From Promethearchaeia archaeon (GTDB lineage Archaea > Asgardarchaeota > Lokiarchaeia > Sigyniarchaeales > SOKP01): 64,000 bases of DNA. The notes beneath the pieces were generated by a model. The model was not told the origin of the DNA and made no database searches. It saw nothing but the letters and a program-made list of their open reading frames with translations. The DNA is taken from contig JAHQWJ010000014.1 of NCBI GenBank assembly GCA_029856125.1, positions 64,001-128,000 of the forward strand, given 5' to 3'. Below, in pieces: positions 1,131-15,896 of the stretch. Every line of letters begins with the position of its first letter. Within the stretch, counting starts at the first letter, position 1. Made by a program: the position numbers and the translations under genes.

Positions 1131-1412
1131 TTTCTCTTCAGTTAGTTTTAATAGTTTAACAATTTTGTTCAAGCAAATGTCAAAATTTAAATTGAAATCC
1201 AGAAGATTAAGAATAATTATTCAAAAAATATTAACCCAAACAAGGAGAGTTTTGTTATCATACATTTTTTTAACTACTGTAATTTGAAACTTTATCGCAA
1301 CATCTATTTGCAAAAGGAGAAGTTTTTTATTAAATTATGATTAAATTAACACAACTAATTGTAATAATCAAATTAGCTAATTTTAAAAATCAAATAAAAA
1401 AAACAAAAATAG

Positions 1413-2749: not shown

Positions 2750-4054
2750 ATGGTAAAAGAAATAACAGTAGAACCAGTCACTCGATTAGAGGGACATGGT
2801 GGATTAAGAATTGTCATTGGAGATGACGGTAAGGTAAAAGATGCTCAGTTTAACATAACTTCGACACGATTTTTCGAGAAATTTCTTGAAGGACGTTATT
2901 GCGAACACATACCTAGAATCACGCCTAGAATTTGCGGAATTTGTCCAATCCCACATCATTTAACTCCCACAAAAGCTGTAGAAGACGCTTGGGGCGTTTC
3001 TATTCCAGAACCAGCTCGAAAATTGCGAATTTTGTTACAGAACGCGAAACAATATTCTAGTCATACGTTACATTTCTACGCACTCGCAGCACCTGATTTC
3101 TTATTAGGTCCGTTTGCGGATCCTGCGTTAAGGAATGTCGTTCATGTAATTAACAAAATGCCAGATGTTGGAGCAATGGCTTTGAAAATGATGGATTTCG
3201 GTCAAAAACTCTGTGCGGAGATTGGAGGAAAATCTGTTCATCCTGTTTCTGCGATAGTTGGAGGCATGAAAAAGCCAATGAGCGAAGCTGCTCGGGATAA
3301 GTTTTTGAAAATGATTCCTGAACAAGTCGAATTTGCAAAGAAGACTGTTGAGATCGGATTAAAAGTCGTCACCGATTATTGGGATGTCGTTGCTAATGTA
3401 GGTGTTGTTCCTACTTATTACTTAGGCATGACCAATAAAGGTGTCCATGATATTTACGAAGGAGATATTCGAATTGTTACACCTGATGGAAAGAAGATTG
3501 ATTACGATGTTCATAACTACTTAGACGCACTTGGTGAACATATTCCAGAGCATTCTTATGCGACACACATGTATTACAAGCCTGCAGGATATCCTGAGGG
3601 TATTTATCGTTCTAACACGTTAGCAATGATAAATTGTGCCGATAAAATGGCAACTCCTTTGGCAGATGGCGCACTTAAAGACATGAGAGATAAACTTGGA
3701 CCAATTTCCCATCACACCTTTGCTTATCACTGGGCTCGATTAATTGAATTAGTTGAGTCGATTGAGATGGTTGCGACACTATTACAGGATCCTGACATTG
3801 TAAATCCTGATTGTAAAACATTAGATGTCCAACCAAGAGAAGGAGAGGGTATAGGTATGACCGAAGCCCCGCGGGGCAATTTATTGTACCACATTTGGTC
3901 TGATGCTGATGGTATATGTAAGAAAGCAAATCTCTTAGTAGCGACAAATCATAACATTGCTGGAATTGAGAAAACACTTATGCACGTAGCAAAGCAGGTG
4001 TTTGAAGATAAGGCGTTAGAAGGATTAAAATTACCAGACCCTTGGATTGATTAA
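2750..4054 (+). CDS. vhuA: Group 3c [NiFe(Se)] hydrogenase large subunit lacking the C-terminal L2 motif (VhuA-type)
   Basis: VEPVTRLEGHG, L1 motif RICGICPIPH, EAPRGNLLYH, ANLLVATNHN. No DPCxxCxxH at the C-terminus. AGGTGA SD upstream. Confidence 0.92.
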   Translation: MVKEITVEPVTRLEGHGGLRIVIGDDGKVKDAQFNITSTRFFEKFLEGRYCEHIPRITPRICGICPIPHHLTPTKAVEDAWGVSIPEPARKLRILLQNAKQYSSHTLHFYALAAPDFLLGPFADPALRNVVHVINKMPDVGAMALKMMDFGQKLCAEIGGKSVHPVSAIVGGMKKPMSEAARDKFLKMIPEQVEFAKKTVEIGLKVVTDYWDVVANVGVVPTYYLGMTNKGVHDIYEGDIRIVTPDGKKIDYDVHNYLDALGEHIPEHSYATHMYYKPAGYPEGIYRSNTLAMINCADKMATPLADGALKDMRDKLGPISHHTFAYHWARLIELVESIEMVATLLQDPDIVNPDCKTLDVQPREGEGIGMTEAPRGNLLYHIWSDADGICKKANLLVATNHNIAGIEKTLMHVAKQVFEDKALEGLKLPDPWID

Positions 4055-4080: not shown

Positions 4081-4233
4081 ATGAGCGAAGAAATACCGGA
4101 AGGAGTAGTAAACCTTTTAGAAATGATTGTGCGTTGCTTCGATTGTTGACTATCGTGCGCAGCCCACATAACCGTTGTTAAAGAAAACGGTGAAGAGGTT
4201 TACTCTCGCAAGTTGAACGTTGGCTTAGGATGA
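4081..4233 (+). CDS. vhuU: Selenocysteine-containing hydrogenase subunit VhuU (50 aa, Sec at codon 23; missed by ORF track)
   Basis: MSEEIPEGVVNLLEMIVRCFDC-U(TGA 4147-4149)-LSCAAHITVVKENGEEVYSRKLNVGLG*. Supplies the L2 motif missing from VhuA. The UGA sits at the Ni-ligand position of DP(C/U)xxCxxH. Confidence 0.93.
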
Positions 4234-4290
4234 ATATCCAATAAAAACAATAGATTGGATATAACGCCCCCTGCCCGGGGTAAAAGCCAA
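4220..4290 (+). promoter_or_regulatory. Putative SECIS-like structured element
   Basis: AUGA (4230-4233), then perfect 9-bp stem ATATCCAAT(4234-4242)/ATTGGATAT(4254-4262) with A-rich loop AAAAACAATAG. GC hairpin CCCC/GGGG (4267-4280). Outer stem TTGGCTT(4220-4226)/AAGCCAA(4284-4290). Confidence 0.65.
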
Positions 4291-4329
4291 TAAATATAAA
4301 ATAAATGGAAATGAAAAATTGGAAAAGAC

Positions 4330-4845
4330 GTGAAAAAAATGACAGTAGATTTTGAATTTCGAAAACAAGTTATGGATTATCATATCGGGTCTGATTTAAT
4401 TAAGTATTGTTATCAATGTAGTCGTTGTGCAGATAACTGTCCAATTACTAACGTAACGACAGACTTCTATACGACTACAGGATACAATCCAAGAAGCAAC
4501 ATTCTTAATGCTTTGTTAGGATATAAGGAAGCAATATTTTCATCTGATGCCTTGACCATTTGGGGTTGTACCGTTTGTGATACATGTGATGAGGTTTGTC
4601 CTCAGAATATCGAATTAACTGAGATTTTTACACTATTAAAAAATCAAAGTGTAGCAAACGGAGATGCGCCTGATTTTATCTACTCGCAAGCAAAAGCAAT
4701 TTTTGATAGTGCGAAAGCGATCCCATCTCAACCTGCTATAGAGCGTAGACGAGAACAATTGGGTCTACCCCCTGTTGCAATGCCGGACATTAGTGAACTC
4801 CAAACTTTATTAAAAAATATTGGAGTAGAAAAAAAGCTAAAATAA
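4330..4845 (+). CDS. hdrC: Heterodisulfide reductase subunit C
   Basis: CYQCSRCADNCP and WGCTVCDTCDEVCPQ (2x[4Fe-4S]); RREQLGLPP tail; precedes hdrB. Confidence 0.9.
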   Translation: MKKMTVDFEFRKQVMDYHIGSDLIKYCYQCSRCADNCPITNVTTDFYTTTGYNPRSNILNALLGYKEAIFSSDALTIWGCTVCDTCDEVCPQNIELTEIFTLLKNQSVANGDAPDFIYSQAKAIFDSAKAIPSQPAIERRREQLGLPPVAMPDISELQTLLKNIGVEKKLK

Positions 4846-4850
4846 GAGGA

Positions 4851-5735
4851 ATGATGAGAAAAATGACAGACTATAAAATGTTTGAAGGTTGTACTATCGG
4901 AAACCGTATTCCTTTCATTGAAGCGGCATCCAGAAAAGTTTTTGATAAAGTTGGAATTGAGACTTCACAAACGAACTTTACTTGTTGTCCAGATCCCACC
5001 GGCATGAAATCGTTTGATAACGACGCTTGGCTAGCCATTGGTGCGAGAAATCTATGTTTAGCGGAAGCTGAAGGAAAAGACATAATTTCTCTATGTAATG
5101 GTTGTACTAATACGCTTCGAGGAGTCCAACATCAATTAAAACACGATTCATGGAAAATGGATAAGGTCAATAAAGAGCTCGCTAAGATCGGAAAAGAATA
5201 CAAAGGCACAATAGATATTAAGCATTTCGTTGATGTGCTGAGCGATAAATTAGACAAAGTCAAAGAAGCAATAACTAAACCACTTGACGGTCTAAAAGTC
5301 GCAGTCCATCCTGGGTGTCACTATATGCGACCTGCAGAATGGATGGAATCCGACGATCCTATGAGGCCAACTACGCTAAAGAAACTCGTAGAAGCAAGTG
5401 GAGCGACAGTTGTTGATTACGGGGAGGAAATATTGTGCTGCGGAAGTGCTGTGACTAACGCTTACGAAGAACACGGGTTTGCAAACTTAAAGATTAAGAT
5501 GGACGCTATCAAAAAATCGGGCGCAGATGTGATTGCTGTAAATTGTCCAGCGTGTTATCAACAGTTCGATACGAGACAACGAGATTTAGGTAAGGCATAC
5601 GAGACCGAATACGCAACTCCCGTGTTATATATCACAGAGCTTTACGCATTAGCAATGGGCTTCACTCCAGACGACATCGGCTTAAAATTTCACAGAGTTC
5701 GATTGAAATCCACGTTAGAAAAACTTGGTTTATAA
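4851..5735 (+). CDS. hdrB: Heterodisulfide reductase subunit B
   Basis: Two CCG domains: FEGC..TCCP..ARNL..CNGC and HPGCHYMRP..CCG..CPACYQQFD. Confidence 0.93.
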   Translation: MMRKMTDYKMFEGCTIGNRIPFIEAASRKVFDKVGIETSQTNFTCCPDPTGMKSFDNDAWLAIGARNLCLAEAEGKDIISLCNGCTNTLRGVQHQLKHDSWKMDKVNKELAKIGKEYKGTIDIKHFVDVLSDKLDKVKEAITKPLDGLKVAVHPGCHYMRPAEWMESDDPMRPTTLKKLVEASGATVVDYGEEILCCGSAVTNAYEEHGFANLKIKMDAIKKSGADVIAVNCPACYQQFDTRQRDLGKAYETEYATPVLYITELYALAMGFTPDDIGLKFHRVRLKSTLEKLGL

Positions 5736-15653: not shown

Positions 15654-15896
15654 ATGTGTCTCGCAATTCCAGGTAAAATTGTAAGTATTGATGGGAATAG
15701 TGCTATAGTCGATTTCGATGGAATAAAACAAGAAGTCATTATAGCATTGGTATTAAACCCAGAAGTAGGTAAGTACGTTATTATTCACGCTGGTTACGCA
15801 ATTGAACAAATGGACGAGAAAGACGCTATGGAGGCAATTGAAATGTGGAAAGAAATCTCTGAGGATCAGAGCCTCGATTTATCCGACATGTTATGA
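15654..15896 (+). CDS. hypC: Hydrogenase maturation chaperone HypC/HupF
   Basis: MCLAIPGKIV..VDFDG..VGKYVIIHAGYAI. Confidence 0.96.
   Translation: MCLAIPGKIVSIDGNSAIVDFDGIKQEVIIALVLNPEVGKYVIIHAGYAIEQMDEKDAMEAIEMWKEISEDQSLDLSDML

Follow-up and report, generated by a model that had tools for sequence, protein, structure and literature searches.

An unannotated vhuU gene in a Lokiarchaeial hydrogenase operon and the cysteine that precedes its predicted selenocysteine

The vhu operon and its unannotated gene

The window, a stretch of 64,000 nucleotides from a Promethearchaeia archaeon contig, carries on its forward strand the genes vhuG, vhuA, vhuU, hdrC and hdrB, in this order. The first, vhuG (1413-2738), encodes an Fe-S small subunit of 441 aa (PF01058) with a duplicated C-terminal Fe-S domain, and vhuA (2750-4054) encodes a truncated [NiFe] large subunit (PF00374) containing R-x-C-G-x-C (Cys62 and Cys65). 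Downstream lie hdrC (4339-4845), which matches 4Fe-4S dicluster families and is named from its position before hdrB, and hdrB itself (4851-5735), which has a CCG domain (PF02754). Between vhuA and hdrC, an earlier note on this DNA had reported a hidden ORF containing an in-frame TGA, and both its coordinates and the codon concerned were confirmed: the frame (4081-4233) opens with an ATG at 4081-4083, comprises 50 codons and closes with a TGA at 4231-4233, and its sole internal in-frame stop is the TGA at 4147-4149, codon 23. Read through this codon, the peptide contains the motif R18-C19-F20-D21-C22-U23-L24-S25-C26-A27-A28-H29, followed by an extension of 21 residues (4168-4230). The codon of Cys19 lies at 4135-4137 and that of Cys22, at the usual proline position and adjoining selenocysteine (Sec), at 4144-4146; the TGA of Sec23, which is followed by CTA, aligns with the terminal nickel ligand.

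The ORF was proposed to be VhuU, the peptide that supplies the ligand motif missing from VhuA, and alignments to PDB chains bore this out. VhuA retains its N-terminal CxxC (Cys62/Cys65) and lacks a C-terminal D-x-C-x-x-C-x-x-H, and its best PDB match is a VhuA chain of the M. maripaludis type (9sfi_g, E 3e-122). The small peptide can be aligned both to the C-terminal end of MvhA and to 9sfi_M, a VhuU chain of 27 residues, and codon 23 faces the Sec of 9sfi_M and the first Cys of the D-P-C of MvhA. The ORF thus lies directly 3' of a large subunit without C-terminal ligands and encodes D-x-U-x-x-C-x-x-H with an in-frame UGA at the first ligand. Homology and conservation past the TGA both mark it as a selenoprotein gene with a C-terminal Ni/Fe ligand motif, present as a single copy in the whole genome. 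As matches were found in 52 of 61 relatives and in 180 of 301 genomes of the phylum (the weakest being C-termini of unsplit enzymes), and as pN/pS is low past the TGA, the ORF is not a product of chance. We are therefore nearly certain that it is vhuU, the separately encoded and unannotated C-terminus of a group 3c-type [NiFeSe] hydrogenase, with its internal TGA decoded as Sec. It is an ordinary Asgard (Lokiarchaeia) VhuU, of a kind already published at the gene level in 2016. Its recognition closes an annotation gap, since the genome's principal Hdr-linked hydrogenase would seem defective if vhuU were overlooked.

The small subunit is longer than the solved MvhG and VhuG proteins (441 aa vs 288-308 aa), and its best PDB matches fall in two stretches. 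An internal repeat (40% identical, E 3e-11) corresponds to a duplication of the Cys-rich Fe-S domain, which may provide extra clusters; the vhuG copy at locus L068 is also long (436 aa). The vhuD and hdrA genes are sited elsewhere in the genome, away from the vhu operon. Divergent beside the operon, on the minus strand (1-929), are a YeeE/YedE-type transporter gene (PF04143) and a TusA-like gene, and both families have been associated with selenium use in the literature. A hypC maturation gene (15654-15896) lies 10 kb downstream of the operon.

Decoding of the internal TGA

The tabulation of codons 19, 22 and 23 across relatives, which the earlier note had suggested, was made on 103 homologous loci obtained by protein search. 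Codon 23 was TGA in 101 of them and TGT in two, while codons 19 and 22 were never TGA. Measured against 76 close homologs, pN/pS was 0.03 before the TGA, 0.005 in codons 24-29, 0.25 in codons 30-44 and 0.05 in codons 45-50, and differences at codon positions 1, 2 and 3 numbered 239, 26 and 710. By this measure the codons past the TGA are under purifying selection, so that the coding conservation named beforehand as a test of Sec decoding is present (0.005-0.25).

A lokiSECIS element was located at the gene end (4219-4291, plus strand), identified from its fold, its pattern among homologs and its published description (PMC4989117). Its AUGA (4230-4233) includes the stop codon and is followed by a 9-bp stem (4234-4242 paired with 4254-4262), an 11-nt A-rich loop ending in AG, then AA beyond the stem, and a side hairpin and lower stem, with fold z values of -3.6 and -4.0. 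The GC-rich side hairpin (4266-4281) turns the element into a three-armed junction. The same pattern occurs at the equivalent place in most vhuU homologs; in the genome it has 21 matches, compared with 4-6 in shuffled sequence, and four vhuD genes with an in-frame TGA carry it behind them. In the Loki VhuU.1 described by Mariotti et al. (2016; PMC4989117), the lokiSECIS likewise overlaps the stop codon and AA replaces GA. Two paralogs with Cys23 (L049 and L068) end in TAA and are still split from vhuA, and no SECIS match was found in either. Genome G039 has, besides a Cys23 paralog, a Sec-encoding vhuU copy with Phe22. One vhuU allele (L069, genome G068) has a TAA six codons past His29 that truncates the tail, with the SECIS intact downstream.

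Most of the Sec machinery that had been named as worth looking for was found in the genome. Two Sec-type selD genes, themselves Sec-containing, stand in tandem (G000 C24:553-2855, minus strand), and multiple selD genes have been reported (PMC11227280). A sepSecS gene is present, as is a pstK-like gene, whose match (E 2e-49) falls short of the curated cut-off. The tRNA-Sec gene, with a UCA anticodon, lies beside sepSecS (L128; G000 C101:about 1290-1406, minus strand); some 26 nt interrupt it directly past the anticodon, at an intron position, and it was missed by Rfam and ARAGORN and located using sequences of congeners, whose own copies are intronless. Beyond the T-loop, its 3' end seems to have diverged. 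The Rfam tRNA-Sec matches in the genome proved to be tRNA-Leu. EFSec was absent from the assembly, and the best match to the selB model was EF-1alpha. In a congener, the DNA on either side of EFSec corresponds to two contig ends of this assembly (C42 and C101), and EFSec is therefore probably missing here owing to an assembly gap.

Taken with the lokiSECIS, the Sec machinery and the selection past the codon, the near-universal TGA bears out the proposal that codon 23 very probably encodes Sec. The alternatives that the TGA is a genuine stop codon, was introduced by faulty assembly or marks a pseudogene, for which the missing EFSec might speak, are almost certainly wrong, given that 101 of 103 homologs have the TGA too, that purifying selection and a SECIS follow it, and that contig ends match the flanks of the congener EFSec.

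Distribution, history and role of cysteine 22

The motif had been described as atypical, with Cys replacing a conserved Ala and Pro at positions 19 and 22. Position 22 is indeed the usual Pro position, but neither the atypical character of the motif nor the conservation of Ala and Pro was borne out. Among the 103 unbiased loci, position 22 was Cys in 97, Phe in three, Pro in two and Asn in one, and position 19 was Cys in 91, Asn in four, Ile in four, Ala in three and Ser in one. Cys19, Cys22 and Sec23 occur together in the Lokiarchaeia genomes G050 and G055. Named records with the motif came from Promethearchaeia and from Thor-, Hel-, Jord-, Borr- and Atabeyarchaeia, and Cys22, as far as these sequences go, is the majority form across Asgard archaea. 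Ala and Pro are not general outside them either: Methanopyrus VhuU has Ser19 and Ile22, and unsplit D-P-C enzymes often have Cys19 (L113, L115 and L118). A species-wide pattern scan gave at least 120 matches; among those listed, 110 were Asgard-type split peptides and ten were chance matches, which had no hydrogenase context and came from bacteria-titled records where titles were shown. Within the 120 matches listed, D-C-U/C occurred only in Asgard-type split hydrogenases and no fused large subunit carried it; a search of longer proteins for a fused VhuU C-terminus returned one 112-aa fragment only, which weighs little. To the extent sampled, Cys22 is therefore unusual for hydrogenases in general and common within the Asgard phylum. 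One vhuA-vhuU(Sec)-hdrC cluster (L141:1-1958) stands on a 2.7-kb contig of a Bacteroidales MAG, nests in Lokiarchaeia and was probably assigned to the wrong bin. Asgard-type vhuU also turns up in records titled Deferrimicrobium, Nanopelagicaceae and Thermoproteota.

The history of position 22 was followed in two quick VhuA trees computed without bootstrap, with unsplit enzymes as the outside group and, in the second tree, Methanopyrus as well. The Asgard split enzymes group together in both (SH-aLRT 93 and 100). Pro22 falls within Lokiarchaeia, beyond starred branches, and therefore represents a reversion. Phe22 arose twice, in one clade and in the single genome of L308; the latter case, one base from TGC, could be a recent change or an error. 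Asn22 lies on a long, possibly basal branch, and its direction is uncertain. These Pro, Phe and Asn lineages keep Sec23 and an intact vhuA. Reversion of Sec to Cys occurred twice and independently (L049 and L068), and Cys22 was kept both times. The trees thus suggest that Cys22 is old in Asgard VhuU and has been replaced up to four times with Sec retained.

Because Cys22 has been exchanged for Pro (one nested lineage), Phe (two) and Asn (one, of uncertain direction) with Sec kept, and has itself been kept when Sec was lost, we favour a packing or otherwise non-redox role and consider it rather probable. Cys22 has also never become Sec, in a lineage that converts other Cys to Sec (PMC4989117). 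Against packing stands its constancy: Cys22 is encoded by both TGT and TGC and is about as fixed as Leu24 and Ser25, and this conservation appears high for a filler residue.

Such conservation gives weight to the main competing explanation, in which Cys22 and Sec23 form a reversible vicinal selenylsulfide that keeps selenium from being over-oxidised, whether in the peptide not yet docked with VhuA or at the nickel site once exposed to O2. An adjacent Cys-Sec pair is retained by 97 of the 103 homologs, in several Asgard classes, and a free Sec peptide of 50 residues would be exposed before assembly. The position equivalent to Sec governs O2 tolerance in the C576U variant of E. coli Hyd-1 (PMC8020662), and a Cys-Sec bond has been proposed for the HdrA subunit of a complex of this type (PMC13518236). 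A vicinal redox centre would, however, need the Cys alongside Sec throughout the family, and this is not what was found: Sec occurs without Cys22 in four Asgard lineages, all with vhuA intact, and outside Asgard in the split enzymes of Methanococcus (Pro) and Methanopyrus (Ile), and Cys22 persists without Sec in two. The replacements are, moreover, mostly bulky hydrophobics rather than Ser, Ala or Sec. The substitution pattern leans against a selenylsulfide, which we regard as unlikely. No description of a vicinal selenylsulfide active site in hydrogenases was found in the literature searched. Likewise, the portions of the Asgard hydrogenase literature that were searched gave no discussion of Cys22; the residue presumably appears in supplementary alignments.

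The partner subunit was considered from the same angle. No conserved VhuA cysteine is tied to Cys22, and Cys62 and Cys65 alone are invariant; Cys155, present in 45 of 55 sequences, was rejected as a partner as it also occurs in lineages without Cys22. VhuA has lost Arg287 in all three of the lineages compared at first (Pro22, main Phe22 and Asn22), a pattern expected in 0.011 columns under independence, although this comparison was made post hoc. The Phe22 locus L308 keeps the Arg and loci L047 and L141 have lost it with Cys22 kept, so that covariation between Arg287 and Cys22 is only a weak lead. Lys100 and Met148 are shared by all sampled Asgard split VhuA proteins; unsplit enzymes have other residues at the former position and Arg/Lys at the latter, which looks like a clade-specific charge swap.

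A complex model was built on the natural Cys23 pair of VhuA and VhuU from L068, whose peptide is 80% identical to the one studied here. It scored 0.89, compared with 0.00 for the best control, with a partner pLDDT of 71 and at least 80% of contacts agreeing between runs; 51 of 78 solved complexes attained that mark, as did 2 of 108 mismatches. A like complex is already solved (9sfi), and the pass may therefore reflect memory and speak for likeness only. In this model Cys19 packs on a VhuA helix free of Cys, and Cys22 lies within the interface.

The modelled contact of Cys19 bears on a further proposal, that Cys19-x-x-Cys22 is a disulfide or a transient metal-binding site during maturation. Both residues are Cys in most homologs and the spacing is that of a CxxC, but a contact with a Cys-free helix fits such a site poorly. 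Cys19 has in addition been lost (to Asn, Ala, Ser or Ile) with Cys22 kept, Pro22 occurs with Cys19 kept, and Cys19 is found in the unsplit D-P-C enzymes as well. We consider this proposal quite improbable.

Still less probable is a reading in which an RNA-level recoding signal, rather than the protein, holds codon 22 in place. The context of the UGA is constrained, codon 24 being CTA in 88 of 92 family-f1 loci and in 29 of 30 Thor-type loci (kin that are not independent), with CTA making up 9-10% of Leu codons in the upstream gene; UGA-CUA is a weak-termination context in eukaryotes (PMC4207609). This context is not kept in family f2 and was not seen at other Sec codons of the genome. Thor-type loci (L071-L087 and others) have a consensus hairpin in vhuU after the Sec codon (median z -3.0 vs synonymous recodings). 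That hairpin, however, begins past the UGA and leaves codon 22 unpaired, no coding-region hairpin past the UGA was found in the window (z +0.75) or in family f1, and codon 22 is divided in f1 between TGT (48) and TGC (44).

Finally, the suggestion that positions 19 and 22 may be additional Sec sites in relatives, which the several Sec residues of Loki HdrA, VhuD and PrxL (PMC4989117) might encourage, was contradicted: TGA occurred at position 22 in none of the 103 unbiased loci and at position 19 in none of 170 pooled loci (171 rows minus one D-P-C fragment, L113; a set that mixes pattern searches requiring or excluding Cys22 and is not a frequency estimate). No VhuU-type match with two TGA codons was present among those listed from relatives and phylum genomes, and VhuU is reported with a single Sec (PMC4989117). 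In the genomes searched, VhuU thus does not have the more than one in-frame UGA seen in selenoproteins of the HdrA, VhuD and PrxL type, and a multi-Sec VhuU is highly improbable.

If Cys22 does shield nickel-bound selenium, it would represent a means of O2 protection new to [NiFeSe] hydrogenases; a role in packing alone would make it a lineage marker. Natural variants with Pro, Phe or Asn at position 22 and with Cys at position 23 are available for comparison.

Proposed maturation and comparison with known systems

Considering the above results, an ordinary Asgard VhuU in which Cys22 is a packing residue is, on balance, the probable explanation as a whole. According to the published model, the lokiSECIS at the ORF end would cause UGA23 to be read as Sec, and the last UGA, inside the SECIS core, would terminate translation. 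By homology, VhuU would then dock into VhuA, with Sec23 as the terminal nickel ligand and Cys26 as the bridging ligand, and VhuA would contribute Cys62 and Cys65 to the metal site. The tail past His29, which is 21 residues long in most homologs, had been suspected of being cleaved during maturation, and it does look cleavable: a HycI-family protease gene is present in the genome, and the solved VhuU chain (9sfi) ends one residue past the His. Processing of M. voltae VhuU is attributed to Sorgenfrei 1993 as cited in PMC2933860. The extension is thus probably removed by a maturation protease, presumably after nickel insertion. VhuA/VhuU together with VhuG, VhuD and HdrABC would form an H2-linked electron-bifurcating complex. 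Within it, Cys22 would be an old Asgard replacement of the middle residue of D-x-U, buried by packing rather than serving as a fifth ligand or redox partner, and Cys19 would be a variable packing residue.

Published work already covers this type of gene, together with its SECIS and its distribution in Asgard archaea (PMC4989117, PMC11227280, PMC11291895). Like Loki VhuU.1 (PMC4989117), the present gene encodes about 50 aa with a single Sec and has an AUGA doubling as stop, and the two SECIS elements share the 9-bp stem, the 11-nt A-rich loop and the AA after the stem; no gene-level difference was found from Loki VhuU.1 or from the Asgard FrhA/MvhA/VhuU family (PMC11227280). With the VhuU/VhuA of Methanococcus (9sfi chains M and g; PMC13518236) it shares the split large subunit, Sec as terminal nickel ligand and the helix-D-x-U-x-x-C-x-x-H layout. 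In contrast, Methanococcus has Ala19, Pro22 and Tyr24 in place of Cys, Cys and Leu, and the present system has a eukaryote-like SECIS, a duplicated Fe-S domain in vhuG, and vhuD and hdrA located elsewhere. Methanopyrus VhuU (L284, L291, L294 and L296, where the upstream VhuA cluster is named Methanopyrus sp.) is likewise a split gene with a non-Pro residue before Sec and the ending U-L-S-C-A-A-H, but differs in Ser19, Ile22 and a tail of 14-16 aa. Mammalian thioredoxin reductase has a redox-active vicinal Cys-Sec pair on a free C-terminal arm. VhuU resembles it in having a Cys directly adjoining Sec in sequence; by analogy with solved hydrogenases, however, the Sec of VhuU would be a metal ligand in a folded active site, and its neighbouring Cys appears to be dispensable in several lineages.
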